Shown here in pieces: positions 8,149 through 39,264 of a stretch of DNA of 39,751 bases. This DNA comes from an uncultured Nitrososphaerota archaeon (GTDB lineage: Archaea > Thermoproteota > Methanomethylicia > Methanomethylicales > Methanomethylicaceae), in NCBI GenBank assembly GCA_964617245.1, contig CAZTWF010000085.1:1-39751 (forward strand), given 5' to 3'. The translations under genes were made by a program, and so were the position numbers. Within the stretch, counting starts at the first letter, position 1; every line of letters begins with the position of its first letter. Under the pieces are notes generated by a model. It searched no databases, was not told the DNA's origin, and saw nothing but the letters and a program-made list of their open reading frames with translations.

Positions 8149-8180
8149 AATAAACATAAAAAATGGAAAAATAAAAAATT

Positions 8181-8387
8181 TTACTTCTTTGTAGTCCACC
8201 ATTTTATATATTCTTTTCTTATTTTCTCTTTTTCATCTTCATCTTTATGTACTCTATATTTAGCTTTTATTTCATCTATTTCCTCTCTTGTTAATGATAT
8301 ACCACAACTTTTACAAACATATCTCCTAATAGATTGTTGATAAAGCATTTCTCCACCACATTCAGGACATATTAGCATTTTACTCAC
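8181..8387 (-). CDS. Small zinc-ribbon protein
   Basis: CPECGG...CKSCG zinc-ribbon motif followed by a basic/acidic tail. Length is 68 aa. It is the first gene of the minus-strand trio with the GPN GTPase. Confidence 0.55.
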   Translation of the reverse strand: MSKMLICPECGGEMLYQQSIRRYVCKSCGISLTREEIDEIKAKYRVHKDEDEKEKIRKEYIKWWTTKK

Positions 8388-8421
8388 AATTTAAAATTAA
8401 TTTTCAAATTAATAAATTCAT

Positions 8422-10352: not shown

Positions 10353-10892
10353 ATGATTATTGCAGTTGGTACTTCAAATCCTATTAAAGTAAAAGCAGTT
10401 GAAAATGTTTTTTCAAAATTATTTAAAGTAACTATCATAATGAGACCAGTTTCTATTAGTATTCCATCCCAGCCAATAGGATTAGATATTGTAATAAAAG
10501 GAGCAATTGAAAGAGCAAAAAAAGCTTTAGAATTAGAAGAAAAAGCAGATCTTGGTGTAGGTATAGAAGCTGGAATCATTCCTATGCCATACACTATAAC
10601 TGGATATATGGATCAACAATTTGCTGCAATAGCTGATAGATCTGGAAAAGTTACTATTGGCGGAGGTCCTGCTTTTGAATATCCTCCTCTTGTTATAAGA
10701 AGAGTAATTAATGAAAAATTAGAGGTTAATACTATAATGGAAGAAATTACTAAGCAACCTAAAATTGGACAAAAAGAAGGAGCAATTGGATTTTTATCTA
10801 AAGGAATTACAAATAGAATTCAAATTACTGAAATGGCTATAATAATGGCTCTTATTCCTCGTCTTAATGAAGATTTATTTAACAAATTCTAG
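10353..10892 (+). CDS. Non-canonical purine NTP phosphatase (YjjX/DUF84, inosine/xanthosine triphosphatase)
   Basis: N-terminal IAVGTSNPIKVKAV motif, about 175 aa, with a GGTGA Shine-Dalgarno sequence upstream of the ATG. Confidence 0.7.
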   Translation: MIIAVGTSNPIKVKAVENVFSKLFKVTIIMRPVSISIPSQPIGLDIVIKGAIERAKKALELEEKADLGVGIEAGIIPMPYTITGYMDQQFAAIADRSGKVTIGGGPAFEYPPLVIRRVINEKLEVNTIMEEITKQPKIGQKEGAIGFLSKGITNRIQITEMAIIMALIPRLNEDLFNKF

Positions 10893-11895
10893 GAACAGGT
10901 TCTCCTAATGGAGGATTAATAATTCTTTTTCCTCCTATTATTGTATTCATAATTACATATCCAGGCATTTCTTTTTTTACATATCCAATAATTTTTGCAT
11001 CTTTTCCTTCTTCAGTTGACTTAATTGCTTTAAGTATATTATCAGCATCTTCAGCTTTTACACCCATTACTATTCTTCCTTCACATGCAAGTTCTAAAAA
11101 GTCTATACCTAGCATTTCACATGCTCCTTTTACTTCATTTCTAATTGGTATTTCTTCTTCATTGATCCATATGCTTACATTAGATTTTACAGCCATTTCA
11201 TTTAAGGCCATAGCTAAGCCTCCTCTTGTTGGATCTTTTGCAGCAGTAATTTCTCCTGCATCCATGGCTTTTTTCATTAAATTCCATAATGGTGCTACAT
11301 CAGATAATATATTTGTTTTAAAAGAAATTCCTTCTCTTAAAGAAATTATAACTATTCCATGATCCCCAATTGGCCCAGTTACTATAATTTTATCACCTTC
11401 TTTTAATCCAGAATCTAATATTGGTCTTTTTTTATAAAGCATACCTATACCCATTGTTGATATAATAATTCCATCAATTTTTCCCCTTGGCATAACTTTA
11501 AAATCTCCATGTATAAGAGAAATTTCAAATTTCTCCATAATTTCATTCATAGAAATGAAAATCTTTTTCAAATCTTCTATTTCAAATCCTTCTTCTACTA
11601 CAACTGTATCTATTATAGCAATTGGTCTTGCTCCCATTACAGCTAAATCATTTATAGTTCCACAAATTGCAAGTTTTCCAATATCTCCTCCAGGAAAGAA
11701 TATTGGTGTGATAGTATAAGCATCTCCAGTTACTACAATTTCCTCAGAATTTATTGGTATAGTAGCTCCATCATCAAGTTCATCTAATCCTATTCCTCTT
11801 CCAACTTTTCTATTTTTTATATTTTTTAGAATAATATTTTTAATAAGATCATTCATTATTATTCCGCCAGCACCATGACTGAGCTGTATCTTCAT
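10879..11895 (-). CDS. hypE: [NiFe]-hydrogenase maturation protein HypE
   Basis: N-terminal LSHGAGG, PurM-like fold, and the hallmark C-terminal PRIC (the cysteine that carries the thiocyanate). Confidence 0.9.
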   Translation of the reverse strand: MKIQLSHGAGGIIMNDLIKNIILKNIKNRKVGRGIGLDELDDGATIPINSEEIVVTGDAYTITPIFFPGGDIGKLAICGTINDLAVMGARPIAIIDTVVVEEGFEIEDLKKIFISMNEIMEKFEISLIHGDFKVMPRGKIDGIIISTMGIGMLYKKRPILDSGLKEGDKIIVTGPIGDHGIVIISLREGISFKTNILSDVAPLWNLMKKAMDAGEITAAKDPTRGGLAMALNEMAVKSNVSIWINEEEIPIRNEVKGACEMLGIDFLELACEGRIVMGVKAEDADNILKAIKSTEEGKDAKIIGYVKKEMPGYVIMNTIIGGKRIINPPLGEPVPRIC

Positions 11896-12339: not shown

Positions 12340-12696
12340 TTATCTTATTCCTCTAATCTTTCTAATTACTAATTCTTTTCCTCTTTCTAATTCAATTTCT
12401 CCTTTACAATATGGACATTTCATTTGAAAAGCTATAATTTCTTTAATATCTTTTTTAATTTTTTTCTTACAATTTTTACATATGAAAATAGGTTTACTTT
12501 TCCTTATGTATAATTTACTATTTTCTCCTATTGTTCCTTTACTTAAAATTTTAAAACAAAATTTAAATTGTAAAGGATTAATATGTGTCATTTCTCCTAA
12601 TTCAATATGTATAGAAGTTATTTTCTTTAATTTCATTTTTTTACTTAAGTCTTCTATATAATTTATTACAGATAATGCAAGAGAAAATTCATGCAT
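12340..12696 (-). CDS. hypA: [NiFe]-hydrogenase nickel-insertion protein HypA
   Basis: N-terminal MHEFSLA nickel site and the zinc motif CKNC...CPYC. Length is 118 aa. Confidence 0.85.
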   Translation of the reverse strand: MHEFSLALSVINYIEDLSKKMKLKKITSIHIELGEMTHINPLQFKFCFKILSKGTIGENSKLYIRKSKPIFICKNCKKKIKKDIKEIIAFQMKCPYCKGEIELERGKELVIRKIRGIR

Positions 12697-24249: not shown

Positions 24250-24275
24250 ATATTCAAAAATTATTAATACTACCT

Positions 24276-24289
24276 GAATATATAAATTA
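24276..24289 (+). promoter_or_regulatory. TATA-like box (GAATATATAAATTA) about 25-28 nt upstream of ATG 24311, suggesting a leaderless first gene for the respiratory block
   Basis: An AT-rich TATA-like element sits in the 61-nt divergent spacer, and no Shine-Dalgarno sequence precedes ATG 24311. Confidence 0.3.
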
Positions 24290-24310
24290 GTAATTATGAG
24301 CTGAGCGGCC

Positions 24311-24595
24311 ATGGCTCCTCCACTATTTGCACGATTTTACATTAATGGTCAAATACTTTATGAAAAAGTAAAAGAAATTGCAAAAAATCAAAATTATGAA
24401 ATTATTTATGAAGATCCAGTAAATAAGATTCTTCATATTCATAAAAGAGTTTATGGCAGAACAATTCATTTAATTATTCATATTGGTGATGGAAAAGATA
24501 GAAGTTTAGCTATAGATGTAAAACCTGGTTATGAGGGATTTTCTATGGATTATGGAAGGAGATTTCTTGAAGAAATTAAAAAAGTAGCTAGGTGA
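24311..24595 (+). CDS. Hypothetical soluble protein, first gene of the hydrogenase block
   Basis: 94 aa with no TM helices and no motif that I recognise. AGGTGA lies just before the next gene. Confidence 0.45.
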   Translation: MAPPLFARFYINGQILYEKVKEIAKNQNYEIIYEDPVNKILHIHKRVYGRTIHLIIHIGDGKDRSLAIDVKPGYEGFSMDYGRRFLEEIKKVAR

Positions 24596-24599
24596 TATT

Positions 24600-24905
24600 A
24601 TGAGTCTTTTCTGGGGTATTCGTTTTTGGTTAAGATTAATAAGAGAAATTTTAGCTTCTATTATAGATGTAAGTAAAAGATGTTTAAATGGTAATATTGA
24701 TCCAGTAATTTCACCAATAGATTCAATATTAGCTAAACCAATTTCTCAAACAATGTTGGCTAATAGTATAACATATACACCTGGTACTGTTACTATAGAT
24801 GTAAATGTACCAGAAAAACGTCTATATGTAGGTGTTATTAATCCAAGAAAAAGAGAAGAAATAATACCATTAGAACCACATATAGAGAGGTGGCTTGAAA
24901 AATGA
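24600..24905 (+). CDS. MrpE/MnhE-like antiporter subunit (MbhA-like), short form
   Basis: LANSITYTPGTVTIDV...LYVGV matches the MnhE ITLTPGT core. At 101 aa it lacks the usual N-terminal TM pair. Confidence 0.6.
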   Translation: MSLFWGIRFWLRLIREILASIIDVSKRCLNGNIDPVISPIDSILAKPISQTMLANSITYTPGTVTIDVNVPEKRLYVGVINPRKREEIIPLEPHIERWLEK

Positions 24906-25204
24906 TTGATGCATTAATATTAGAAGAGATTGCAGATTTAACTTTCTTTTTTGGAGCATTTATATTTATGATAGCAACAGCTTTTGCTGGATTAGGTGCC
25001 TTAAGACTTGCTCTTAAAGGTGAAGCTGTTACATCACTTATGGGAGTAAGTGCTTTAACTACAGCTGCTGGAGTGAGTTTATACATAATACAAATTATAT
25101 TTGAAGTAGAATTTGCTAGAGATACAGCAATAGCTTTACTAATTCTTGGATCAGTAGGTACTATAATATTTGCAAGATTATTTAGAATGGAGGAGGGAGA
25201 ATGA
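24902..25204 (+). CDS. MrpF/MnhF-like membrane subunit (MbhB-like)
   Basis: About 100 aa with 3 TM helices. ARDTAIALLILGSVGTIIFARL resembles the MnhF C-terminal helix. ATGA overlaps occur at both ends. Confidence 0.5.
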   Translation: MIDALILEEIADLTFFFGAFIFMIATAFAGLGALRLALKGEAVTSLMGVSALTTAAGVSLYIIQIIFEVEFARDTAIALLILGSVGTIIFARLFRMEEGE

Positions 25205-25680
25205 TATCTGAACTTTTTGTATTAATATATGCAATTATTATAATTGGATTTGTAGCATGGAATATAAAAAAGGGATCATTTGTTATAGAACCTAGTAAAC
25301 TAATAATTATTATTATAATATTATCGATAATTACTACATTTATCTTAAGTTATAAGATTGATATTTATATTACTATTCGTTCTATTGCAAAAATTTTAGC
25401 TGGTGGAATAATGTTTGCAGGTGTTTTACCTATGATTTCTGCAGGAATTGGTTTATTTAGATTTGGTGATGAATATGGTCCAAATATCTTCTATGTTAGA
25501 AATCATATTACTGGTGTTATTGATACTACTGCTTCTCTTGTTATGATTTTTGCTGGTTTATTGATATTTAGATTAGATTTAGTTGCTGTAGGATTTTTCT
25601 TCTTTATATTAATACCATTTGTTGGTAATGCTTTAGCTAATGCTTATTATTATTCATATCAAAGGAGGTTAAGAGAATGA
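25201..25680 (+). CDS. MrpG/MnhG-like membrane subunit (MbhC-like) with an N-terminal extension
   Basis: GIGLFRFGDEYGPNIFYVRNHITGVIDT resembles the MnhG GllRlPD..tRlHa motif. At 159 aa it is longer than the usual roughly 110 aa. Confidence 0.55.
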   Translation: MISELFVLIYAIIIIGFVAWNIKKGSFVIEPSKLIIIIIILSIITTFILSYKIDIYITIRSIAKILAGGIMFAGVLPMISAGIGLFRFGDEYGPNIFYVRNHITGVIDTTASLVMIFAGLLIFRLDLVAVGFFFFILIPFVGNALANAYYYSYQRRLRE

Positions 25681-25940
25681 TAGAATTATCTTCAAGTTTT
25701 ATAATAACTGCATATATTATGTTAATTGCAATAACTATTGGTGCTATTGCTGCTTTACTTCAAAAAGATCTATTAAGAGCTGCTTTTATCTCTGGAGCAG
25801 AAAGTATTGCTCTTGCTTTCTTCTTCCAAGCCTTACTTGCACCAGATCTAGGATTAACACAAGCAATTGTTGGCACAGTTCTTTTACCAGGAATTATAAT
25901 TCTTGGTGTATTTAAAACAAGGAGGACTGAGGAGGATTGA
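25677..25940 (+). CDS. MbhD-like small membrane subunit (DUF4040, MrpA C-terminal fragment homologue)
   Basis: AESIALAFFFQALLAPDLGLTQAIVGT matches the APDVALTEAAVG-type motif. Length is 87 aa. Confidence 0.6.
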   Translation: MIELSSSFIITAYIMLIAITIGAIAALLQKDLLRAAFISGAESIALAFFFQALLAPDLGLTQAIVGTVLLPGIIILGVFKTRRTEED

Positions 25941-26311
25941 CTGAAATTACCATACAGTTACTAGGATTTATTGCAGCAACAGTACTTATTGTAGTAGGCA
26001 TGGGAGGAATGTTATTTTTAGATAATTTGATTAAAAAAGTAATTGCATTTACATTACTTTCAGATGGTGTTAATTTATTACTTGTTGCACTTGCATATAT
26101 AGAAGGAGGAATTGTTCCAATTTTATTACCTGGCATGTCTATATCTGAATTTACTTCAAGAGCAGCTTTAGTATTTCCTGCAGGAATAGTTTTAACTAAT
26201 ATAGTAATAGGTGTAAGTACTACAGCTATACTTGTAGCCTTAGTTATAATGCTTTATAGAAGATATGGAACTTTAAAAGCTTCTGTTATTTTAAAAGGTG
26301 AAAGAAGATGA
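25937..26311 (+). CDS. MrpC/NuoK-like membrane subunit (MbhG-like)
   Basis: LIKKVIAFTLLSDGVNLLLVA resembles the NuoK/MnhC pattern. 124 aa with 3 TM helices and a TTG start preceded by GGAGG. Confidence 0.65.
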   Translation: MTEITIQLLGFIAATVLIVVGMGGMLFLDNLIKKVIAFTLLSDGVNLLLVALAYIEGGIVPILLPGMSISEFTSRAALVFPAGIVLTNIVIGVSTTAILVALVIMLYRRYGTLKASVILKGERR

Positions 26312-27804
26312 TGGAAAGTATTTCAAATCTTTGGTCAATTCCATTATTAGTTATAATTCCTATGTTAACAGCTATAATAGTGAATTTCCTTTATGATAAA
26401 GCTATAAAACCTATCTCTATTTGTTCTGCTATAATAATATTAATAATTTCTATAATTTCACCTTATGGTTATCATTGGTTTACTGGACATCCTGCTTTTA
26501 ATCCAGATACTTTATTATTTACATTTAATCCTAATATTTTTGGTTATAGACTTTCATTAGAATTTATTTTTGGTCCTTTACAACATATAATGATTGTTAT
26601 ATCATCTTTAATATTACTCTTTTGTGTTACATTATCAACAATAGGATTAACAAAACGTCAAGGTCCATATATGGCTTTATTATATCTTCTCTTCATGTCT
26701 TCTGTTATAGTAATAATGGTAAATGATCTTTATCATTTATGGATTGTTGTAGAAATAGGTAGTCTCATAGTAGTTGGTGTAGCTGCAGCTTCTGGTACAA
26801 GTATTAGTCATAAAGCTGCTTTAAAATATGCTTTCTTTTCTGCTATAAGTGGAGCTGGATTAGCTGTTTCATTAGCATTAATACTTGGATTAACAGGATT
26901 TGCAAATATTTCAGATGCTATAATATATTTAAGACAATTTGGTATTGGAGATATGGCTACTGTTTTATATATAGCCTTTGGATTTTTTGTACTTTCTTGG
27001 ATGTATGCAGGAGGTTTGGCTCCTATTCATCCACTAAAATCTGAAGTTTATGGAGCTTCATATCCTCATGCTACTGTATTATTACAAGTTCAATCAAAAC
27101 TTATGCTTGTAGCCATAGGTATTATAATGCTTCGTTTATTTAGTATGCTTCCTTTTGTAAAAGAAGTTATGATATTCCTCAGTGTTATAACAATGATGAT
27201 TGGTGTAATAATGGCTTTAATACAAGTAGATTTTAGATGGATTATTGCTTATTTAATAATAAGTCATAGTGGTCTTGTAACTTTGGGTATAGGACTTGGT
27301 ACTCAAGAAGGATTAGTTGGAGGAATATTTCAAGCAGTAAATGATATAATATATATGACTATATTATTACTTTGTTGTGAAGCATTATTTTATTTTGGAG
27401 GAAAAACTTCAACAAAAGAAGCTTATGGCATTGCAAAGAAATCACCTTTTATTACTACAGCAGTAATATTAGGTGCTATTGCAGCTGCAGGTATACCACC
27501 ATTTAATGGTTTTCAAAGTGAAATAATATTAATTCAAGCATGTTTAAAAGAAGGTCTTCCAGAAATTGCTGTTTTAATACTTATGGTATCAGTAACTACA
27601 TTTATTGCCTTATTAAGAGGAATCTATAGAATATTCTTAAAACCACCTGAATTACAAGATCAAGATGATTCTAATGTTGATTTACCAAAAGTTCTTATTA
27701 TTGGTATTATTATATTTATTATTCTCTCAATTATAATAGGTATTTATCCTGATATTGTTTTAAGATTTATTATTCCAGTAGTAAAGGAGGTTCTTTTAAT
27801 ATGA
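26308..27804 (+). CDS. MrpD/NuoL-M-N-like antiporter subunit (MbhH-like)
   Basis: 498 aa with about 14 TM helices. LWIVVEIGSL, APIHPLKSEVYGASYPHATVLL and IAYLIISHSG are typical of the complex I antiporter-like family. Confidence 0.85.
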   Translation: MMESISNLWSIPLLVIIPMLTAIIVNFLYDKAIKPISICSAIIILIISIISPYGYHWFTGHPAFNPDTLLFTFNPNIFGYRLSLEFIFGPLQHIMIVISSLILLFCVTLSTIGLTKRQGPYMALLYLLFMSSVIVIMVNDLYHLWIVVEIGSLIVVGVAAASGTSISHKAALKYAFFSAISGAGLAVSLALILGLTGFANISDAIIYLRQFGIGDMATVLYIAFGFFVLSWMYAGGLAPIHPLKSEVYGASYPHATVLLQVQSKLMLVAIGIIMLRLFSMLPFVKEVMIFLSVITMMIGVIMALIQVDFRWIIAYLIISHSGLVTLGIGLGTQEGLVGGIFQAVNDIIYMTILLLCCEALFYFGGKTSTKEAYGIAKKSPFITTAVILGAIAAAGIPPFNGFQSEIILIQACLKEGLPEIAVLILMVSVTTFIALLRGIYRIFLKPPELQDQDDSNVDLPKVLIIGIIIFIILSIIIGIYPDIVLRFIIPVVKEVLLI

Positions 27805-28127
27805 CTTCAACTGAGACTATTTATGAAAGATTAAAAAAATGGTTGGATAAGTTTGTAATTGGAAGTGGATATACTAGTATAACAACTGGATATATAACAG
27901 GAGAATTACAATTTTTAGTTTTCATAATAGTATTATCAGTATTCTTTAGAATATTTTCAATTCCATTAGCAATTATAATGCTTATTTTTATTACAACTTT
28001 TGCATTATATTTTGCACCAGTAATAAAAGATGTAGAAAAAGAAAATATGAATGATTTAAATAGAGTACTATTTTGGATGGTTATTTATTTTGCAATTATA
28101 ATTGCTATAACCTTATGGGGTGGATAA
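27801..28127 (+). CDS. Small integral membrane protein (position equivalent to MbhE; unassigned)
   Basis: 108 aa with about 3 TM helices, translationally coupled by ATGA overlap. Confidence 0.4.
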   Translation: MTSTETIYERLKKWLDKFVIGSGYTSITTGYITGELQFLVFIIVLSVFFRIFSIPLAIIMLIFITTFALYFAPVIKDVEKENMNDLNRVLFWMVIYFAIIIAITLWGG

Positions 28128-28128
28128 T

Positions 28129-28953
28129 ATGGAAGAACTAAAAGGAAAAAGAGGAATAATTGCTGTAATAGCATTATTAATAATAACTATAGGACTTCTT
28201 TCTTCACTTGAAAAATTAACAGGAAGAGTTAATCCTGGCATTAGTATGATATATAATTCTTTAGCATATCTAATAGCTCCAAATAATTTAGCTACATGGG
28301 TTTATGATTGGCGTGGTTTTGATACATTACTTGAAACTGCAGTAATATATGTTGGTGGATTAGTTTCTGCTCTTGCTATAGGAAGAGGAGTAGTACAAAT
28401 GAAAAAATGTAAACAAGAATCACCAGTTACTTCTAGACCTTTGGAATTTAGAATAGAATCTCTTACAGTAATATTAAAATTTCTTGGAATTCCTGCATCA
28501 ATTCTCGTACTTTCATATGGTATAATGATAGTAACAGGTTCTTCTACTTGTGGTGGTGGAGGATTCCAATGTGGTGTAATAATGACATCTGCATACTTAT
28601 TAGCTGCAATATTCTATGGAAGAGATAATCCAATAAAATTTGGAAAGAGATTCATAGTAGGAATTGGTGCAATTGGACTTGGAGGTTATACATTATTGGG
28701 CCTTCCTGGTTATTTAGCAACAGGATATTGGCAATATAATATTGGTACAGATGTATGGAATATAGCTCCTAGTATACTACATACAATATTTGGAGATCCG
28801 TTTAGATTATCTTTAATTTTAAAAGAAGGAGTATTTTATTCATCTCCTGGTATAATTCCATTAATAAATATTGCTGAAGCTTTTAATGTAATTGGTGCTA
28901 TTGGTTTAATTTATTTTGCATTTCTTTATGGTTGGTCTGATGAAGGTGAGTAA
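28129..28953 (+). CDS. MnhB/MrpB-domain membrane subunit (MbhF-like) with an extra C-terminal membrane domain
   Basis: WRGFDTLLETAVIYVGG is the MnhB-domain signature. At about 275 aa it is roughly twice the usual length, and it includes a CGGGGFQC segment. Confidence 0.6.
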   Translation: MEELKGKRGIIAVIALLIITIGLLSSLEKLTGRVNPGISMIYNSLAYLIAPNNLATWVYDWRGFDTLLETAVIYVGGLVSALAIGRGVVQMKKCKQESPVTSRPLEFRIESLTVILKFLGIPASILVLSYGIMIVTGSSTCGGGGFQCGVIMTSAYLLAAIFYGRDNPIKFGKRFIVGIGAIGLGGYTLLGLPGYLATGYWQYNIGTDVWNIAPSILHTIFGDPFRLSLILKEGVFYSSPGIIPLINIAEAFNVIGAIGLIYFAFLYGWSDEGE

Positions 28954-28954
28954 A

Positions 28955-29212
28955 ATGATGCTTGGAGAAATTGCTCCTTCTTTAATAGCTCTTATATTAG
29001 GTATAATCTTTGGTACACAATTAAATTATAAATTCACAGGAAGAATGGTTATATTACTAATTAGTTTTAGTATAGTAGCTAGTTTATTATTTGGAACTTT
29101 TACATTTATGTATTCTATATATGGAGGTTATATTGCTCCTGGTATAGGATTTTCTATGCCTTTAATAACTGCTACTATTGGTATTATTATAGGAAAATTA
29201 TTGAAAGGGTGA
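28955..29212 (+). CDS. Small integral membrane protein (MbhI position; unassigned)
   Basis: About 86 aa with 3 TM helices. The start is taken at the ATG after the GGTGA Shine-Dalgarno sequence. Confidence 0.4.
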   Translation: MMLGEIAPSLIALILGIIFGTQLNYKFTGRMVILLISFSIVASLLFGTFTFMYSIYGGYIAPGIGFSMPLITATIGIIIGKLLKG

Positions 29213-29655
29213 TAATTGTGTATCTTACAACTACTGATTGTGATAAATGTGGAAAATGTTGGGAAGCATGTCCTACTGATTGTATAATACATCCTGATGG
29301 CTATCCTTTTAGTTGTACTACTTGTGGTGAATGTCTAAAAGTATGTCCAGTTCATGCTATTAAAAGAAATAGATTTGGTGGATTATATGTAGATAGAAAA
29401 AGATGTACTCTTTGTGGTGAATGTGTTAAACATTGTCCATTTGGATTTGCTAAAATTATATTTGATGAGAATTTAGGAAGAGAAGTTGTAAAAGGAATAT
29501 GTGTAAGATGTGGAAAATGTCTAAAAGTATGTCCAAGAAATGCAAGATTTGATATAGGAAGATATATTCCTCATCCTTTAGATTATTCATTTGTTCTTGA
29601 AATTACTACACCTGAAAAATTAAAAGAAATTCTTAAAGGAGTTGTTAATAAATGA
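29209..29655 (+). CDS. Ferredoxin with four CxxCxxCxxxCP motifs (potentially 4 x [4Fe-4S])
   Basis: The four motifs are CDKCGKCWEACP, CTTCGECLKVCP, CTLCGECVKHCP and CVRCGKCLKVCP. Confidence 0.8.
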   Translation: MIIVYLTTTDCDKCGKCWEACPTDCIIHPDGYPFSCTTCGECLKVCPVHAIKRNRFGGLYVDRKRCTLCGECVKHCPFGFAKIIFDENLGREVVKGICVRCGKCLKVCPRNARFDIGRYIPHPLDYSFVLEITTPEKLKEILKGVVNK

Positions 29656-30674
29656 AAGTTTCAAAAAGGAAAATCTATAGAGATCTTTCAAAATGTATAT
29701 TATGTGGAAGATGTAGAAATGTATGTCCTACAAATGCTATTAAATTTGAAGTTAAATATTATGGATTATGTACACATTGTAATTTATGTGCAGAAATTTG
29801 TCCTGTAAAAGCTATAGATTCTTATGAAGGAAAAATAAGTCAAGAAGAATATGGTAAATTATATACAAATTTAAAGAGTTATAATGAAAGAAAAATAAAA
29901 TTAAATTGTGTTATGTGTATGAAATGTTATGAAGAATGTCCAGTTGATGCTATAAAAATAGTTGATGGAAAATTAGAAATTAATAAAGGAAATGCTTTTC
30001 CATCTATTATAAATTGTAATTTATGTTCTTTATGTTCTATGGTATGTCCAAATAATGCTTTAAAATTTGAAATGAATAGAATAAAATTAAATCCTGAATT
30101 ATGTACTCTTTGTGGTGAATGTGTTAAACATTGTGTAACAAATACTATGTATCTTAAAGATAGATATCCTGCAGGATATTGTGTTATGTGTGGTCGTTGT
30201 ATAAAATCATGTCCTGTTTCTGCTCTTTCCATAAAGACTATTACTTGGGATGGTGAAATAACTACATGTATAAAATGTGGTACATGTGTAAAGATATGTC
30301 CAGTTAATGCTATAAGTCTTAATCCAATAATTGATGATAAACCATTAATTAATACAAGTAAATGTATTCTTTGTGAATTATGTGCTGCTTATTGTCCTGT
30401 TGATGGTATTCCTATATTAAATATACTTAAAAAGAAAAAGTTAGAACAATGGTCAATATCAATAGATAGAAATGTATGTATTGGTTGTGGACTTTGTGTA
30501 GATGCTTGTAAAATATCACTTAAAGGAGAAAGTGCAGTATATCTTAATAAAGGATTAGCTTATGTAAATAAAGATAAATGTATTGGATGTGGTGCATGTG
30601 CTATGACATGTCCAACTGATTGTATTAAATTAACTAAAATTTATGAAACAAAGGAGGTTGTTATAATACCATGA
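29652..30674 (+). CDS. Polyferredoxin with ten CxxCxxCxxxC motifs (potentially 10 x [4Fe-4S])
   Basis: I counted ten motifs in the 340 aa translation. Eight end in CP, one in CV and one in CK. No TM helices are present. Confidence 0.85.
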   Translation: MKVSKRKIYRDLSKCILCGRCRNVCPTNAIKFEVKYYGLCTHCNLCAEICPVKAIDSYEGKISQEEYGKLYTNLKSYNERKIKLNCVMCMKCYEECPVDAIKIVDGKLEINKGNAFPSIINCNLCSLCSMVCPNNALKFEMNRIKLNPELCTLCGECVKHCVTNTMYLKDRYPAGYCVMCGRCIKSCPVSALSIKTITWDGEITTCIKCGTCVKICPVNAISLNPIIDDKPLINTSKCILCELCAAYCPVDGIPILNILKKKKLEQWSISIDRNVCIGCGLCVDACKISLKGESAVYLNKGLAYVNKDKCIGCGACAMTCPTDCIKLTKIYETKEVVIIP

Positions 30675-31153
30675 TAACTTTATTAAGACTTATGCTTCAA
30701 GGAGCTTATAGAAATATTGCAAGAATATTAGCAAAAGCTGATAGAGCTACAAGTATTGAAATAAGAAATAAAGTTTTAACTCTATCTGTACCAGCTTGGG
30801 AAACTGTACTTGATGAAATGTGTATTGGATGTGGTGCATGTGAAAAAGTTTGTCCAACTAAGGCTATAACTATGATAAAATTAGAAAAACCAATTGAAAT
30901 AATTGAAGGTTATAAAAGAGAAAAAGTTCCTAGAATAGATTTAATGAAATGTGTCTTCTGTTTAAATTGTCATGATTTTTGTCCTATTTTTGCATTATTT
31001 GGAGAAGCAGCACCAATTCATGCAAGAGATGTAGGTAGTCCTAGATTAACTCTTAGTGAAATACTTAAGAAACCAATAAAAGCACCACCAGAAAAAATTG
31101 AAGAGCTTAAGAAATTAATTCCATCTGAATTTTTTAAAAGTATAAGGAGGTAA
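30671..31153 (+). CDS. 2 x [4Fe-4S] subunit, NuoI/MbhN/EchF/HycF-like
   Basis: [12 protein letters not shown] and [12 protein letters not shown] with the spacing and N-terminal leader typical of NuoI-like subunits. Length is 160 aa. Confidence 0.75.
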
Positions 31154-31157
31154 GAAT

Positions 31158-31607
31158 ATGGGATTAAAAGCTATTGCAAGAAAAAATGCAATTCATGTCA
31201 TGTTAATTTATACTGGAGGATGTAATGGTTGTGATATTGAAGTTGTTAATGCAGTTTTCTCTCCAAGATATGATGTAGAACAATATAGAGTTCTTTTAAC
31301 ATGGAATCCAAGAGAAGCAGATGTACTTATTGTTACAGGATGTGTTACTTGGCAAATGATAGAACCATTAAAGAAAATTTATTCATTAATACCTGAACCT
31401 AAAGCTGTTGTTGCTGTTGGTGCATGTGCTATAAATGGTAATGTGTATAAGAATATGGTAGGAGAAATTGAAGTAAATGAAGAAGTATTCGCTCCAATAG
31501 ATAATATAGTTCCTGTAGATGCTAAAGTACCTGGATGTGCTCCAAGACCTGAAGATATACTAACAGGAGTTGTAAAAGTAGTACCAAAATTAATGGAGGC
31601 ACCATAA
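31158..31607 (+). CDS. Group-4 [NiFe]-hydrogenase small subunit (NuoB/MbhJ/EchC-like)
   Basis: [20 protein letters not shown] and PGCAPRPE. Length is 149 aa, and a strong AGGAGG Shine-Dalgarno sequence lies upstream. Confidence 0.9.
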
Positions 31608-32777
31608 ATGTCTAAAAAAATAATAGAAAAAGAAATCTCCATAGGGCCAGTTCATCCTGCTTTAATTGAACCATATAGAATTAGATTTTTTGTAAATGAT
31701 GAAATTGTTGAAGATTGTGAAATAAATATAAATATGGCATATAGAGGTGTAGAAAGATTATTAGAAGGTCTTCCTGTAGAAAAAGCATTATTAATTACAG
31801 AAAGAATTTGTGGAATTTGTTCAAATGTTCATGCATGGAATTCTATTCGTGTTATAGAATCAGGTCTTAAAATAGAAGTTCCTGAAAGAGCTAATTATAT
31901 AAGAGTTTTAATTAATGAAATTCAACGTATAGCAAGTCACTTAATATTTTTTGGTCATGCCTTTGAAGTTGTAGGACATGAAACCTTTGCTTATAGATCT
32001 TTTCTACTCAGAGAAGTATTTATGGATCTAATGGCTTATATTGGTGGTAATAGAGTAATGCCTTCTGTTCCTGTAATTGGAGGTATAAGACCAAGAGCAG
32101 ATTTAACTAATACTCTTAAAAAAGTAATATTAGAGAGAGCAAATGATTTTGAAAAGAAATATAAAGAATATGTTGATAGAATTCTTGCAGATACTATGGT
32201 AATGTCAAGATTAACTGGTGTAGGATTTTTATCAAAAGAAGAAGCTATAAAATATCGTGCTACAGGTCCAACAGGTAGAGCTTCTGGATGGAATTATGAT
32301 GTAAGAACACTTATGCATGAATATAAACCATTTGATTTTGAAGTAATTGTACTTAAAGAAGGTGATAACAGAGCAAGAGTAGTTCAAAGAGCTCTTGAAG
32401 TTTTTGAATGTTTAAAGATAATTAGACAAGTAGTAAATAATTTACCAGAAGGACCTGTTGTAAATAGAAACTGGACTGTAAAAGAAATGCCATATACAAC
32501 TGCATATTTTGAAGCATTTAGAGGAGAATTAATGCATTCATATGGATTAGATTCTCAAGGATTAATACGTAATTATAAAGTTAGAACACCAACACCTACT
32601 AATCTTGCTGCTATGGAAAAAGCATGTATTGGTGATCATATAACAGATGCTGTTGTAACTATAGCAAGTTGTGATCCTTGTCTTACTTGTTGTACAAGAA
32701 TTGAAGTAGTAGAATCTGGAAAAACTAAGATTATGAGTGATATTGAAATTGTAAGAAAATATGGATGGAGGAGATAA
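31608..32777 (+). CDS. Group-4 [NiFe]-hydrogenase large subunit (NuoD/MbhL/EchE-like)
   Basis: The N-terminal Ni-Fe motif is RICGICSNVH (Cys68, Cys71). The C-terminal motif is DPCLTCCTR (Cys358, Cys361, Arg364), followed by a 25 aa tail. Length is 389 aa. Confidence 0.9.
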   Translation: MSKKIIEKEISIGPVHPALIEPYRIRFFVNDEIVEDCEININMAYRGVERLLEGLPVEKALLITERICGICSNVHAWNSIRVIESGLKIEVPERANYIRVLINEIQRIASHLIFFGHAFEVVGHETFAYRSFLLREVFMDLMAYIGGNRVMPSVPVIGGIRPRADLTNTLKKVILERANDFEKKYKEYVDRILADTMVMSRLTGVGFLSKEEAIKYRATGPTGRASGWNYDVRTLMHEYKPFDFEVIVLKEGDNRARVVQRALEVFECLKIIRQVVNNLPEGPVVNRNWTVKEMPYTTAYFEAFRGELMHSYGLDSQGLIRNYKVRTPTPTNLAAMEKACIGDHITDAVVTIASCDPCLTCCTRIEVVESGKTKIMSDIEIVRKYGWRR

Positions 32778-32779
32778 AT

Positions 32780-33808
32780 ATGGAATTAATAAAAATATTA
32801 TTAGCTTCTATATTAGCTATAATTATTTCAATTCCATATTCTTTAATTCTTCCAGGAATTGAAAGAAAAATTCAAGCAAGAATACAACAAAGAATTGGAC
32901 CACCTATACTTACTCCAGGATTATGGGCAGTATTAAAATTCTGGTATAAAAAAGATGTAGAACCAGTTTCATACTTACCTACATTCTATAAATCATTAAT
33001 AATATTTGGTATTATTATATGCATTATCTTATTCTTATTTTCTACACCATATTGGTGGCAAATACTAGGCTGGGGTAGTGTACTTGGTTTAATTGGAATG
33101 TTGAAATTAGAAGAATGTTTATATGTTCTAATGGGCTCACAATCACAATCCTTTTTATCTACAACAATGCCTGTACCAGATCTTGCTAAAGGAGCTAAAG
33201 GTGTTGGTATATTTAGAGAATTTTTAGAACAACATTCTGCTGAAAGATCAATAAAAATGATGGCAGTAGGCTCACTTCCATTATATATCGCTTTCACAGT
33301 TCCTTTTGCTATGGCAAAAAGTGGAATGCTTTCAGATGTAATAAGAATTCAAAATCCATTATACTTTAATTCTACATGGCTTTCTATTCCAATTCCATCC
33401 AATCCAATAATATTTACAATTCCAGGCTTTCTATCAGCTATTGTATACTTTATAGGATATGTTATATTATTAAATGAAAAGCCTTTTAATATATTAAAAG
33501 CTAAAGTTGATGTAATTGAAGGAGGAATTCTTGAATATGCTGCAAAACTTAGAGCAGGATATTATATAATAAGAAATCTTATGTTATTTATACTTTCAAG
33601 TATTTTTGTTACATTATTTATTGGAATACCATTTGATCCTTTTATGCCTTTATGTATGATTATGAATATAATATTAAGCTTAATAATGCCAATTGCTCTT
33701 TCTGTATTTGTAGCATTTTCTCCAATATTTACTTTCCGTCAAATTTATCCAACAGTTATAGGATTTTCTGCAATGGGAGCACTTGCCTTAATAATTTCTA
33801 TAATCTGA
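32780..33808 (+). CDS. NuoH/MbhM/EchB-like membrane subunit
   Basis: GIERKIQARIQQRIGPP (the NuoH RK..A..Q.R.GP motif) and about 8 TM helices. The start is taken at ATG 32780 after GGAGG. Confidence 0.8.
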   Translation: MELIKILLASILAIIISIPYSLILPGIERKIQARIQQRIGPPILTPGLWAVLKFWYKKDVEPVSYLPTFYKSLIIFGIIICIILFLFSTPYWWQILGWGSVLGLIGMLKLEECLYVLMGSQSQSFLSTTMPVPDLAKGAKGVGIFREFLEQHSAERSIKMMAVGSLPLYIAFTVPFAMAKSGMLSDVIRIQNPLYFNSTWLSIPIPSNPIIFTIPGFLSAIVYFIGYVILLNEKPFNILKAKVDVIEGGILEYAAKLRAGYYIIRNLMLFILSSIFVTLFIGIPFDPFMPLCMIMNIILSLIMPIALSVFVAFSPIFTFRQIYPTVIGFSAMGALALIISII

Positions 33809-33817
33809 GGTGATAAT

Positions 33818-34069
33818 ATGCCAAAAATTGTTTTAAGAGGAAAACATGTGATAAATCTTGGTGGATGGATTGTAGAAAATGTAGCTAATTTACCATATAG
33901 AGATTATATTGTTGGAAATCCATTTGATGAACCTGTTAAAATAGAAGCTCCTATATATTCTATTGATGGTATAAAAGCACTACAAGAACTTGGTTTAATT
34001 GTTGAACCTTTATTACCATATGAAAATCTTGTAGAAAAAATTAAAAAAGTAAAATCTATGATTAGGTAA
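33818..34069 (+). CDS. Hypothetical soluble protein between the hydrogenase and ATPase genes
   Basis: 83 aa with no Cys motif and no TM helices. An AGGTGA Shine-Dalgarno sequence lies upstream. The spacer is 9 nt after the NuoH-like gene and 5 nt before atpF. Confidence 0.45.
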   Translation: MPKIVLRGKHVINLGGWIVENVANLPYRDYIVGNPFDEPVKIEAPIYSIDGIKALQELGLIVEPLLPYENLVEKIKKVKSMIR

Positions 34070-34074
34070 TAAAA

Positions 34075-34356
34075 ATGAAAATTGTTTTTATTGGTAATCC
34101 AGGGCTAACATATGGATATAAACTATTTAATGTAGAGTGTATACCAGTTACTTCAAAAGAAGAATTCTTAAAAGCAATTGAAAAGGTATTGAAAATGAAT
34201 GATGTGGGAATTATATTAATAGATAGTGATTTTTCTTCATTAGTAAAAGATTATATTTATAATTTAAAAATAAAAACAACAATTCCTTTTATAGTAGAAG
34301 TTCCCGGATTAAAATCTACTCCAGAATTAAATATAAAAGTTATTTCAATAAGATGA
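34075..34356 (+). CDS. atpF: A-type ATP synthase subunit F
   Basis: 93 aa reading MKIVFIGNPGLTYGYKLFNVE...VGIILID, which fits the AtpF/VatF pattern. Confidence 0.7.
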   Translation: MKIVFIGNPGLTYGYKLFNVECIPVTSKEEFLKAIEKVLKMNDVGIILIDSDFSSLVKDYIYNLKIKTTIPFIVEVPGLKSTPELNIKVISIR

Positions 34357-34369
34357 TAAGGTGTTAAAT

Positions 34370-34963
34370 ATGAGTCAGAATATAGAAGCTTTTAAACAAA
34401 TGGTTGATAAATTACTAAATGATACAAAAGAAAAAGCAATTTCTATTATCAATAGTACATTTGAAGATATCTTGAAAACATTTAATGAATCTGAAAAATA
34501 TGCTACATCTTATTATAAAGAAATTTTATCTTCATATAAAGAAAGAGCAGAAATTGAATCAAAAAAAGAAATTTCAAAAGCAGAGATAGAATCTCGATTA
34601 TATTTATTAAATTTAAAAGATACATATATTAATAAAGTTTTTGAAGAAGTAAAATCTAAATTTATAGAGTATTGTAAAAGTGATGAATATATAGAGATAA
34701 TTTTAGAAAAATTAAAGAATATATCAAAGGAAATCCCTATAGAACAACTTCTTATGAAAGAAGAGGATATTAAACGTATAAAAATTAGTAGACTTAAAAA
34801 AATTTTAGGCTCTTCAGAAATAAAGCCTCATCCTATTGAAATAGGTGGATTTATTATTATATCTAAAGATGGAAAATTAACAATAAATAGAACATTTGAT
34901 TATTTATTAGAAAAAGAAAAACAAATTCTAAGATCAAAAATTGCAGCAATTCTATTTAGGTGA
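34370..34963 (+). CDS. atpE: A-type ATP synthase subunit E (peripheral stalk)
   Basis: About 198 aa with a long N-terminal coiled coil and a globular C-terminus ([19 protein letters not shown]), placed just before atpA. Confidence 0.65.
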
Positions 34964-34968
34964 TAAAA

Positions 34969-36732
34969 ATGAAAATTGGTAAAATAATGAGAATAAGTGG
35001 TCCTGTTGTACAAGCTGAAGGTGCACTAGGTTTTGAAATGCATGAATTAGTAATGGTTGGAAATGAGGAATTAGTAGGCGAAGTTGTCAGAATAGAAGGA
35101 GATATTATAACAGTACAAGTATATGAGGATACTGTTGGTTTAAAAATAGGAGAACATGTTAAAGGCTCTGGAATGCCTTTAGCTGTAGAACTAGGTCCTG
35201 GATTATTACAAAATATATTTGATGGAATCCAACGTCCACTTACTGTTATAAAAGAAATTACTGGTGATTTTGTAAGAAGAGGAGTTAAAACAACAGCATT
35301 ATCAAGAGATAAAAAATGGCATTTTATTCCATTAAAAAAAGTAGGAGATTATGTAAAGCCTGGTGAAATTATTGGAAAAATCCAAGAAACACCATTAGTA
35401 GAACATAGAATTCTTGTCCCTCCAAATAGAGAAGGTAAAATAGAATATATAGTAGAAGAAGGTGATTACACAATAGAAGAAATAATAGCAAAACTTTCAT
35501 TAAATAATGTAACATATGATTTAAAAATGTATCATAGATGGCCTGTAAGAAAACCAAGACCTTATGTAGAACGTCTTGAACCAACAGAACCTCTTATTAC
35601 TGGTCAAAGAATTATTGATACTCTATTTCCAATTGCTAAAGGAGGAGCAGTTTGTATTCCTGGAGGATTTGGTACTGGCAAAACTGTAACTTCTCATCAA
35701 CTTGCTGCATGGTCAGATGCTCATATAATTGTATACATTGGTTGTGGAGAAAGAGGAAATGAAATGACTGAAGTTCTAATAAACTTTCCAGAATGGAAGG
35801 ATCCAAGAACTGGAAGACCATTAATGGAAAGAACAATATTAATTGCAAATACAAGTAATATGCCTGTAGCTGCAAGAGAAGCTAGTATATATACTGGTGT
35901 AACAATGGCTGAATACTTTAGAGATATGGGATATGATGTTGCAATAATGGCAGATTCTACAAGTAGATGGGCTGAAGCATTAAGAGAAATTGCTGGAAGA
36001 CTTGAAGAAATGCCAGCTGAAGAAGGTTATCCTCCATATCTTGCATCTAGACTTGGAGAATTTTATGAACGTGCTGGAAGAGTTAAAACATTAAGTGGAT
36101 TATACGGGTCTGTAACATTAATAGGTGCAGTTTCTCCACCAGGAGGAGATTTTTCAGAACCTGTAACCGTTCATACAAAAAGATTTGTAAGAGCATTTTG
36201 GGCATTAGATACTGCATTAGCAAGTATGCGTCATTATCCTGCAATAAATTGGTTAATATCATATTCTGAATATGTTGATTATGTTGAAAAATGGTGGAAT
36301 GATAAAACCCATGGAAATTGGAAGAACTTAAGATTAAAAGCTCTTGAAATTTTGAAAAGAGAAGATGAATTAAAAGAAATTATAAGATTAGTTGGTATAG
36401 AATCTCTTCCTGAAAGTGAAAAATTAATTCTTGAAACTGCAAGACTCTTAAGAGAAGCTTTCCTTCAGCAAAATGCATATGATCCAATAGATACATATTC
36501 TTCACCAGAAAAACAATATATGCTTCTATATGCAATTCTTGAATTTCATGATATGGCACTTAAATCAATTTCAAAAGGTATACCAGTTTCAAAGATTATT
36601 TCATTAAAGTCTATTATTGATTTAGCAAAAGCAAGAATGAATATACCAAATGAGAAAATTAATGAAATAGATAATATTTTAAGACAAATAAAAGATGAAA
36701 TCAATAGTATTATGGAGGAGAGATCTTCATGA
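34969..36732 (+). CDS. atpA: A-type ATP synthase catalytic subunit A
   Basis: P-loop [18 protein letters not shown], and the non-homologous region typical of A subunits. Length is about 587 aa with no intein-sized insertion. Confidence 0.95.
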
Positions 36733-38117
36733 GTATAGAATATAGAACTATACAAAAAATTAGTGGACCTTTAATATTTGTAGAGGGAGTATCTGGTGTA
36801 GGATATAATGAACTTGTAGAAATAAAAGATCCAGAAGGAAATTTAAGAAGAGGAAGAGTTCTTGAAATTAATAGAAATATTGCAGTAGTTGAGGTTTTTG
36901 AGGGAACAACAGGTCTATCCATTACATCTTCAACTGTAAGATTTCTTGGCAAACCTTTAACAATACCATTATCAACTGAAATGCTTGGTAGAATTTTCAA
37001 TGGGCTTGGAGAACCAATAGATGGTGGCCCTTCTCCATTTACAGAGGAATATAGAGATGTAAATGGATTACCAATAAATCCATATGCAAGAGATTATCCT
37101 ACAAAATTCATACAAACAGGCATTTCTGCTATTGATGGTATGAATACATTAGTAAGAGGACAGAAATTACCAATTTTCTCAGGTTCTGGTTTACCTCATA
37201 ATTTACTTGCAACACAAATAGCAAGACAAGCTACAATAGTTGGTGAAGAAGAAGGATTTGCTGTTATATTTGTGGCTATGGGTATAAAACATGATGAAGC
37301 TGAATTCTTTAAGAAAAGTTTTGAAGAATCTGGTGTATTAAAAAATTCAGCTTTATTTTTAAATTTAGCAGATGATCCTCCTGTAGAAAGATTAGTAACA
37401 CCAAGATGTGCTTTAACTTTAGCAGAATATTTAGCATTTGAACAAGATATGCATATATTAGTTATATTAACTGATATGACAAATTATGCAGAAGCATTAC
37501 GTGAAATTAGTGCAGCAAGAGAAGAAGTTCCAAGTAGAAAAGGATATCCAGGTTATATGTATAGTGATCTTGCTTCTATTTATGAACGTGCTGGAAGAAT
37601 AAAAGGAAAAAAAGGAAGTATAACTCAAATGCCTGTACTTACTATGCCAAATGATGATATTACTCATCCTATTCCTGATCTTACTGGATATATAACAGAA
37701 GGACAAATTGTACTTGATAGAGATTTACATAGACGTGGCATATATCCACCAATAAATGTTCTTCCAAGTCTTTCTAGATTAATGAAAGATGGAATAGGAA
37801 AAGGAAAAACAAGAGAAGATCATGGTCCAGTATCTAATCAGCTTTATGCTGCATATGCAAGAGCTCAGGAATTGAGAATGTTAAGTACTATAATTGGAGA
37901 AGAAGGATTAACTGATAGAGATAAATTATATTTAAAATTTGGAGAATTATTTGAAAGAAAATTCTTAAGTCAAGGAGTAAATGAAAATAGAACTCTAGAA
38001 ACTACATTAAATATTGCATGGGAATTACTTTCTATATTTCCAGAAAGTGAACTTACAAGAATTCCAGATTACATAATAAAGAAATACTGTAAGAGGGCGC
38101 AACTCTTTGTCTCTTAG
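36729..38117 (+). CDS. atpB: A-type ATP synthase subunit B
   Basis: [43 protein letters not shown] and [11 protein letters not shown]. Confidence 0.95.
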
Positions 38118-38733
38118 AGTTATTCCCTCTAAGATAAATTTAATTCGTTTTAAAAGAACTCTTAATTTTTTAATTAGAGTTCATGATCTTCTTGAAGATA
38201 AGAAAGAAATTTTACTTTTAGAAATAAGTAGAAGATTAAATGAAACAATAAAATTAAGAAAAGAAGTTAATGAAATGTTAAGATATGCTTATGAGCTTTT
38301 AAGTAAAGCTAATGTAATAGTGGGTAATAAAAAAATAGAAGCAATAAAACCAGTAAGTGAATATAAAATTGAAATTAAAAAGAGAAAGATTATGGGAATA
38401 ACTATACCTGCTATTTCTTTTTCTAAAGAAAGAAAACCTATTTCTTATGGTATTTCTCAACCTACTATATTATTAGATAATTCTATTGAAGTTTTTGATA
38501 AAAGTATATTAATGCTATTGAAATTAGCAGAAATGGAAATGATTCTAATAAAATTATTAGAAGAAGTTAAAAATACTCAAAAAAGAATAAATGCACTAGA
38601 GTACATTTTAATTCCTCGATATCGAAATCTAATAGCATTTATATCTTCTGTTCTAGAAGAAAGTGAAAGAGAGGAATTCATAAGAATTAAAAAACTTAAA
38701 AGTATTTGGATGAGGCGAGCAAAACATGGATAG
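38107..38733 (+). CDS. atpD: A-type ATP synthase subunit D (central stalk)
   Basis: [18 protein letters not shown]...[10 protein letters not shown] at the N-terminus and [11 protein letters not shown] at the C-terminus. The TTG start overlaps atpB by 11 nt. Confidence 0.85.
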
Positions 38734-38866
38734 AGAGGAATTAAAAATAAAAGAAATTTATGAATTAAAGAAAACTGAAATAAGAAAACAAATAGAAGAT
38801 ATCATTAATGAATTATCAAAAGAAATTGAAAGAAAAAAAGAAGAAATATATAAGGAAGTTTTATAA
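38726..38866 (+). CDS. 46 aa K/E-rich coiled-coil ORF (not in the ORF track), a possible small stalk subunit (H/G-like or Sulfolobus epsilon-position)
   Basis: Hand translation gives [46 protein letters not shown]. Its ATG overlaps the atpD stop by 8 nt. The assignment rests on position only. Confidence 0.35.
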   Translation: MDREELKIKEIYELKKTEIRKQIEDIINELSKEIERKKEEIYKEVL

Positions 38867-38881
38867 AAGAGTTTTATAAAA
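38857..38881 (+). promoter_or_regulatory. Tandem duplicated TATA-like 12-mer AGTTTTATAAAA (38857-38868 and 38870-38881) upstream of the proteolipid gene
   Basis: There are two exact copies with a 13-nt period. The second copy is centred about 26 nt upstream of TTG 38902. Confidence 0.35.
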
Positions 38882-38901
38882 ACAGAGAGAGGCGAACATT
38901 A

Positions 38902-39264
38902 TTGAGAATAAAGAGCTTACATAGAAGAGTCAAATTATTCTGGACTTTGGTTATCATAATGGGAGTATTTATGGCAGCATCTTCAGTGATTCTAGTAAAA
39001 GCAGCAACACCAACAACTCCATCTACTAGTATCATTGGGTCAAGTGATATTAGTACATTAGCAATAACTTCAGCTGTATCAGTTACAGTATGTGGAGTTG
39101 CTGCAGCATATGCATTAGCACGTAGTGGTACTGCTGCAATTTCTGCTCTAGTAGAAAAGCCTGAAACTTTTTTTAAGGCATTTCTTGTTGTTACACTCTG
39201 TGAAGCTATTGCTATCTATGGTCTAGTAATATCTGTACTATTATGGATTAGAATACCTGGATAA
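38902..39264 (+). CDS. atpK: A-type ATP synthase proteolipid (c/K subunit), single hairpin with an N-terminal extension
   Basis: ALARSGTAAISALVEKPETFFKAFLVVTLCEAIAIYGLV shows a helix 1 - PE loop - helix 2 layout with a conserved Glu. The start is either TTG 38902 or ATG 38959. Confidence 0.8.
   Translation: MRIKSLHRRVKLFWTLVIIMGVFMAASSVILVKAATPTTPSTSIIGSSDISTLAITSAVSVTVCGVAAAYALARSGTAAISALVEKPETFFKAFLVVTLCEAIAIYGLVISVLLWIRIPG

Follow-up and report, generated by a model that had tools for sequence, protein, structure and literature searches.

Energy-converting hydrogenase B (Ehb; subunits EhbA to EhbQ) is the group 4i [NiFe]-hydrogenase of Methanothermobacter, Methanobacterium, and Methanosphaera. 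In its canonical form, Ehb combines a Mrp-like membrane arm with 14 + 2 [4Fe-4S] motifs encoded ahead of the genes for the small, large, and NuoH-like subunits; EhbP comes after EhbO, and there is no NuoC homolog. Eha of class I methanogens (group 4h) is the sister group and likewise has polyferredoxins (EhaP/Q) and no NuoC, but published descriptions set it apart by its 20 subunits and its different small membrane proteins. Mbh of Pyrococcus furiosus (group 4d, PDB 6CFW) resembles Ehb in being ferredoxin linked and ion translocating, and it has homologous MrpE/F/G, MbhD, MbhE/F, MrpC, MrpD, and NuoB/D/H/I-like subunits; however, it includes a NuoC-like subunit (MbhK) and has neither a polyferredoxin nor EhbP. 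The Mbh genes are arranged in the order A-B-C-D-E-F-G-H-I-J-K-L-M-N. In the Methanomethylicia, the first report of Ehb reportedly came from Vanwonterghem and colleagues in 2016. The eha/ehb genes were noted in the Methanomethyliales (Berghuis et al. 2019, PMC6421429), Ehb was assigned to group 4i and described as a "highly conserved cluster" in the Methanomethylicales (Adam et al. 2022, PMC9635834), and Ehb was found in all six Yellowstone Methanomethylicia metagenome-assembled genomes (MAGs) (Lynes et al.); in the paper describing Methanosuratincola petrocarbonis, hydrogenases go unmentioned. Here, we analyzed a gene block at positions 24311 to 34069 (+ strand) of a 39,751-nucleotide (nt) stretch of contig CAZTWF010000085.1 (the window), which comes from an uncultured archaeon of the Methanomethylicaceae. 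As set out below, the block is very probably the Ehb operon of a Methanomethylicia archaeon, and because Ehb has been reported repeatedly in the Methanomethylicia, an operon of this kind was already known.

We listed the open reading frames (ORFs) of the block and scanned all of them with Pfam and NCBIfam. The original prediction had counted 16 co-directional genes, whereas the listing gave 17, all on the + strand and joined mostly by 4-nt ATGA-type overlaps or gaps of 0 to 9 nt, with longer overlaps of 8, 13, and 38 nt (Table 1). The per-ORF scans recovered Mrp-, Mbh-, and Nuo-type domains and confirmed the gene-by-gene assignments proposed earlier (MrpE, MrpF, MrpG, MbhD, MrpC, MrpD, MnhB, ferredoxins, and NuoI-, NuoB-, NuoD-, and NuoH-like subunits). 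Two features had been overlooked in that prediction: the EhbP family match of the last ORF and a soluble orphan at 24311 to 24595, here called o1.

Next, we looked at how the block compares with other Ehb loci. A scan of 185,579 species genomes yielded 80 loci, in which we called ORFs and searched them with the window's proteins, adding iterated hidden Markov models (HMMs) for the proteins that had no assignment. ORFs 2 to 17 mapped one-to-one, and in identical order, to EhbA-B-C-D-E-F-G-HI-J-K-L-M-N-O-P. The matching order was present in Methanobacterium sp. MBAC-LM, Methanobacterium ferruginis, Methanobrevibacter, Methanofastidiosum, the Theionarchaea, and the Altiarchaeota (the last two without EhbK), as well as in 23 Methanomethylicia loci, including those of the cultured Methanosuratincola petrocarbonis LWZ-6 and M. 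verstraetei LCB70. The EhbA ortholog is the first ehb gene in the Methanobacterium loci. The iterated HMMs recovered positional orthologs of EhbG in 59 loci spanning all lineages, of EhbJ in 61, and of EhbP in 73, and the two small membrane proteins previously left unassigned are, by position, EhbG and EhbJ (neither had a credible match among solved structures). The survey of related genomes thus showed a gene order conserved across the Ehb loci of several archaeal lineages, and its conservation over dozens of loci is far beyond chance.

The window therefore has the same 16 subunits, A to P, in the same order as canonical Ehb. It differs in having a fused EhbHI, an EhbK split 4/10 by motif count, an EhbC about 65 amino acids (aa) longer, the additional gene o1, no detected EhbQ, ATPase genes directly after the cluster, and a large subunit of only about 52% identity. 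The fusion of EhbH and EhbI, which are two ORFs in the Methanobacteriaceae and one in the window, has been described for the Methanococci, Methanofastidiosales, and Methanomethylicales (Adam et al. 2022, PMC9635834). Compared with Ehb of other Methanomethylicia ("Ca. Methanomethylicus", LWZ-6, LCB70, and MAGs S31 and WYZ-LMO11), the window has the same genes in the same order, o1 and the atpF-E-A-B genes behind ehbP included, with large-subunit identities of 72 to 94%; some of these relatives split EhbK 4+6+4, while the window splits it 4+10.

The large subunit and several family-specific matches also pointed to Ehb. EhbN of the window was 93 to 94% identical to Methanomethylicia MAG proteins (93% to a "Candidatus Methanomethylicia archaeon" protein), 72 to 87% identical to other Methanomethylicaceae/Methanosuratincola proteins, and about 52 to 54% identical to Methanobacterium proteins named "energy-converting hydrogenase B subunit N" by the Joint Genome Institute (JGI). 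It scored about 440 bits and above against Methanobacterium EhbN, compared with 172 bits against Mbh and 155 bits against HycE. The nearest solved structure was only a distant one, Mbh alpha (6CFW_L), followed by HycE of FHL; the PDB copy searched held no Ehb or Eha structure. The NiFe ligands C68/C71 (RICGICSNVH) and C358/C361 (DPCLTCCTR) were intact and invariant across an alignment with 12 homologs, and a C-terminal extension of about 25 aa followed the DPCxxCxxR motif. The last ORF matched the Pfam family "Energy-converting hydrogenase B subunit P," and the NCBI name of a protein 97% identical to it is EhbP. For the antiporter-like subunit, the best NCBIfam model was "energy conserving hydrogenase EhbF" (PRK06277, E = 6.6e-113), and three other subunits exceeded their NCBIfam equivalog cutoffs (PRK06279, PRK07375.1-3, and PRK06273). 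The specific matches, those of EhbF and EhbP, were all to Ehb rather than Eha.

A similar picture emerged for the iron-sulfur proteins. A regular-expression search for strict CxxCxxCxxxC motifs confirmed the total of 16 given in the original prediction, distributed as 4, 10, and 2 over three consecutive ORFs. When joined, the first two of these ORFs were colinear with the single-gene EhbK of a Methanobacterium locus (L060; E = 2e-106), and we read the 4- and 10-motif ferredoxins as an EhbK divided between two genes. The Methanobacteriaceae have EhbK as one protein of 451 to 477 aa, and in a Thermococci-class MAG (L036) the undivided EhbK shows 14 strict motifs, in line with the description of EhbK as a 14[4Fe4S] polyferredoxin (Kaster et al., PMC3087415). 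The split is 4+10 in the window, Methanosuratincola, and Methanomethylicus; 4+6+4, in three genes, in other Methanomethylicaceae (L003 to L009, L021, and L023, at about 7950 to 9040 in locus coordinates); and 3+9 or 3+10 by strict motif count in Methanofastidiosum. With 14 EhbK and 2 EhbL clusters, the 16-cluster wire therefore equals that of canonical Ehb, only spread over three polypeptides rather than two, and the description of it as unusually long did not hold. The peripheral layout noted earlier, with polyferredoxins ahead of the small, large, and NuoH-like subunits, corresponds to EhbK-L-M-N-O.

The reported lack of a NuoC-like subunit withstood profile and fold searches. Complex1_30kDa (NuoC) matched none of the 17 ORFs in Pfam or NCBIfam, and profiles of o1 and EhbP searched against the PDB at E values up to 10 matched no NuoC or MbhK chain. 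Foldseek comparison of AF2 models of o1 (predicted local distance difference test [pLDDT], 79.9) and EhbP (pLDDT, 84.7) with the PDB revealed no NuoC-like fold, and the EhbP model had no PDB fold match. Since the large subunit can be aligned to Mbh alpha from residue 9 onward, no NuoC domain is fused to it. Canonical ehb loci contained no ORF besides those mapped, and only four Eha/Ehb subunits are described as resembling Nuo core subunits, namely, EhbO, EhbF, EhbM, and EhbN (Kaster et al., PMC3087415). The absence of a recognizable NuoC is a property of the Ehb family and is not peculiar to this locus.

The assignment to Ehb thus draws on what was observed directly: the identity and orthology of the genes, their synteny, the cluster motifs, and the NiFe ligands. 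Several points weigh against it. EhbF scored 378 bits, below its NCBIfam equivalog cutoff of 578 bits, and is therefore divergent. The class call for the large subunit is based on pairwise scores and named matches rather than on a tree with group 4a to 4i references or on HydDB, and the reference Ehb proteins came from Methanobacterium and Methanobrevibacter relatives rather than from the studied Methanothermobacter and Methanococcus. Both o1 and the split EhbK lie outside the canonical description of Ehb, and neither the reaction direction nor the coupling ion is fixed by the sequence.

We then considered the features that distinguish the Methanomethylicia loci. Wherever the flank of a Methanomethylicia locus reached far enough (17 of 17 loci), o1 lay directly upstream of ehbA, at a spacing of -4 to +7 nt; no Ehb locus examined in other lineages had it. 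An exhaustive HMMER search of 1.84 billion representatives turned up about four short relatives; it also matched long proteins over short repeated stretches only, and these matches are probably spurious. A word-based search returned nothing but Methanomethylicaceae hypothetical proteins. The o1 model has a beta-alpha-beta4-alpha topology, with weak fold matches to BamC-N and AMPK/MARK KA1 (E about 3e-4). We rejected o1 as a member of a known family, as it matched no Pfam or NCBIfam model and its weak fold matches give no function, and also, more tentatively, as a relocated EhbQ, as it had no relatives outside the Methanomethylicia. As for EhbQ, only atpF follows EhbP in the window, in a search made without an EhbQ reference sequence; EhbQ is absent after EhbP in the Methanobacterium locus L060 as well and is unlinked to the ehb cluster in Methanosphaera.

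The gene atpF begins 5 nt after the ehbP stop codon. All 22 Methanomethylicia loci with both an EhbP match and downstream flank showed this adjacency, with gaps of -32 to +63 nt. It did not occur in any Methanobacteriaceae, Methanofastidiosa, Theionarchaea, or Altiarchaeota locus, and this distribution suggests a possible hydrogenase-ATP synthase super-operon. EhbC was 159 to 162 aa long in the Methanomethylicia (L001 to L023) versus 84 to 95 aa in other lineages; its MrpG domain occupies residues 71 to 150, and the protein is therefore extended at its N terminus by a hydrophobic segment of about 65 aa that is conserved. We found no discussion of o1, the EhbK fission, the EhbC extension, or the ehb-atp linkage in the cited Ehb literature. 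All four are modest variations on a known system.

A more far-reaching interpretation is that the Methanomethylicia possess a modified Ehb, in which o1 would be a 17th subunit or an assembly or regulatory factor, the polyferredoxins would be separable, with a dissociable 4-cluster ferredoxin, and the operon would be transcriptionally fused to the ATP synthase head genes, such that Ehb and the A-type ATP synthase would be coexpressed as one bioenergetic unit. We consider this possible, if on balance unlikely. It is consistent with the place of o1 as the first gene in all 17 loci at a spacing that fits translational coupling, with the conserved fission of EhbK into two or three genes across the Methanomethylicia, and with an ehbP-atpF adjacency seen in all 22 loci of this lineage and in no other. 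However, adjacency does not demonstrate co-assembly or cotranscription, o1 has no recognizable function, and the split polyferredoxins may assemble just as the fused protein does.

The original prediction had instead proposed that the block encodes a new kind of group 4 hydrogenase, a hybrid of a Mbh/Mrp-type membrane module and Eha/Ehb-type polyferredoxins. The likeness to Mbh holds for single subunits: the membrane proteins match Mrp/Mbh Pfam families, the EhbHI profile matches the MBS subunit 6U8Y_E (8e-21) and the Mbh subunits 6CFW_F (1e-15) and 6CFW_E (1e-6), and Mbh alpha is the nearest solved structure to the large subunit. It does not extend to the module as a whole, whose composition and order are normal for Ehb. 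Because every canonical Ehb locus that we examined, those of cultured Methanobacterium among them, has the same Mrp-like subunits in this order, the module is the normal Ehb membrane arm rather than a graft from Mbh, and the hybrid interpretation is refuted. The difference from the Mbh gene order, which had been pointed out earlier, was upheld and itself speaks against the hybrid, as do the EhbP and EhbF family matches and the much greater similarity of the large subunit to EhbN than to Mbh. The large subunit was closest to EhbN, and the Ehb loci shared gene content and order with the window from ehbA to ehbP; the exceptions were the fission of EhbK, the fusion of EhbH with EhbI (already published), and an additional small gene. 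We therefore regard a new hybrid class as very improbable. A complex-I-like or Mbx-like oxidoreductase without a NiFe site, which would agree with the NuoD models being the top NCBIfam matches of the large subunit, is hardly conceivable because the NiFe motifs (C68, C71, C358, and C361 within L1/L2) are intact and invariant among homologs; PF00374 (NiFeSe_Hases) was matched, and HypA and HypE are encoded nearby.

By homology, the products of the Ehb operon would form a membrane complex. Electrons would pass from the NiFe site of EhbN to the proximal cluster of EhbM, then to the two EhbL clusters and the 14 EhbK clusters, and the EhbK end of the chain would exchange electrons with soluble ferredoxin or ferredoxin-dependent enzymes. 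The H2/ferredoxin redox reaction would be coupled to ion translocation at the junction formed by the NuoH-like EhbO, and the ions would move through the Mrp-antiporter-like arm (EhbA to EhbJ), with EhbF as its MrpD-type subunit. The predicted reaction, H2 + Fd(ox) + ion-motive force <-> Fd(red) + 2 H+ (Fd, ferredoxin), would be reversible in principle. How the complex would assemble, which path the electrons would take, how ions would be coupled, and in which direction the reaction would run were all reasoned from structural homology to Mbh, MBS, and Mrp and from the Ehb literature. We lean slightly toward H2-driven, gradient-consuming ferredoxin reduction, since no other direction has been backed by genetics for Ehb: in M. 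maripaludis, genetics support H2-driven ferredoxin reduction by Ehb for anabolism (PMC3087415). Nearly as probable is the alternative, in which ferredoxin oxidation would build an ion gradient for the ATP synthase encoded downstream; gradient-building ferredoxin oxidation has been proposed for methyl-reducing Methanosphaera and for the Methanomethylicia (Lynes et al. among the sources).

Table 1. Genes of the ehb block and the adjoining ATPase genes, in window coordinates
Feature	Position	Strand	Basis or remarks
o1	24311-24595	+	Hydrophilic orphan of 94 aa; opens the operon; no Pfam/NCBIfam match
EhbA (MrpE/MnhE-like)	24600-24905	+	PF01899, 4.8e-16; NCBIfam PRK06279, 110 bits, above cutoff
EhbB (MrpF-like)	24902-25204	+	PF04066; PRK12612.1-2; synteny
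EhbC (MrpG-like)	25201-25680	+	PF03334 over residues 71-150; ~65-aa N-terminal extension
EhbD (MbhD/MrpA C-terminal-like)	25677-25940	+	PF13244, 3.8e-14; PRK06280; synteny
EhbE (MrpC/NuoK-like)	25937-26311	+	PF00420; PRK07375.1-3, 130 bits, above cutoff; synteny
EhbF (MrpD/NuoN antiporter-like)	26308-27804	+	PRK06277, 378 bits, E 6.6e-113, cutoff 578; PF00361
EhbG (small membrane protein, Ehb-specific)	27801-28127	+	No library match; positional orthologs by iterated HMM
EhbH-EhbI fusion (MbhE + MbhF/MrpB-like)	28120-28953	+	PF04039; synteny; PDB profile matches
EhbJ (small membrane protein)	28916-29212	+	Positional orthologs by iterated HMM; possibly starts at the ATG near 28955 instead
EhbK, N-terminal fragment	29209-29655	+	4 [4Fe-4S] motifs; aligns to EhbK residues 1-131
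EhbK, C-terminal fragment	29652-30674	+	10 [4Fe-4S] motifs; aligns to EhbK residues 138-448
EhbL (NuoI-like, 2 x [4Fe-4S])	30671-31153	+	PRK06273, 187.9 bits, above cutoff; TIGR01971 NuoI, 1.3e-15
EhbM ([NiFe] small subunit, NuoB-like)	31158-31607	+	PF01058, 1.9e-30; synteny
EhbN ([NiFe] large subunit, NuoD-like)	31608-32777	+	PF00346 and PF00374; NiFe ligands; identity to EhbN
EhbO (NuoH-like membrane subunit)	32765-33808	+	PF00146, 9.3e-18; synteny
EhbP (small hydrophilic, Ehb-specific)	33818-34069	+	PF10622, 62.8 bits, cutoff 27
A-type ATPase genes atpF-E-A-B-D, then the c subunit after a gap	34075-39264	+	Pfam ATP-synt_F, vATP-synt_E, ATP-synt_ab, ATP-synt_D, ATP-synt_C

On its upstream side, the block is flanked by genes for a PHP-like protein and ProRS on the - strand, and on its downstream side by the A-type ATPase genes, in agreement with the earlier statement that no formate dehydrogenase (FDH) or carbon monoxide dehydrogenase (CODH) is adjacent. 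For the PHP-like gene (TIGR00375), the probable start is Met22 (about 24249) rather than 24312, and this start leaves a divergent intergenic region of 61 nt (24250 to 24310). The region has a TATA-like sequence, atatataaa, located about 25 nt before the o1 ATG, suggesting a leaderless or short-leader ehb transcript. A promoter and terminator scan of the window gave counts at or below those of shuffled sequences, with bacterial-type models applied to an archaeal host. In the ATPase c subunit (38902 to 39264), the carboxylate is found in TLCEAIAIYG, and there is no obvious Q...ET-type signature. We take the Q...ET motif to be the Na+-binding signature of c subunits, and its lack would presumably be a weak hint of H+ coupling. 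Two [NiFe]-hydrogenase maturation genes, for HypE (TIGR02124, 405 bits; 10879 to 11895, - strand) and HypA (TIGR00100, 91 bits; 12340 to 12696, - strand), are located about 12 kb upstream of the block amid housekeeping genes. The G+C content of the window is 24 to 31% (about 28%), very low for a Methanomethylicia genome fragment, and tRNA and Rfam scans of the 39.7-kb window gave no matches.

The main value of these results is as a correction: a Mrp arm combined with polyferredoxins, a total of 16 clusters, and the lack of both NuoC and an adjacent donor module together make up normal Ehb anatomy. Ehb is structurally unsolved, and what takes the place of NuoC is a general question for Eha and Ehb alike. 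For research on the Methanosuratincola strains recently brought into culture, the ehb-atp adjacency and o1 could be useful starting points. If the Methanomethylicia do carry a modified Ehb of the kind outlined above, it would constitute a hard-wired hydrogenase-ATP synthase bioenergetic unit, undescribed for other Ehb-containing archaea.

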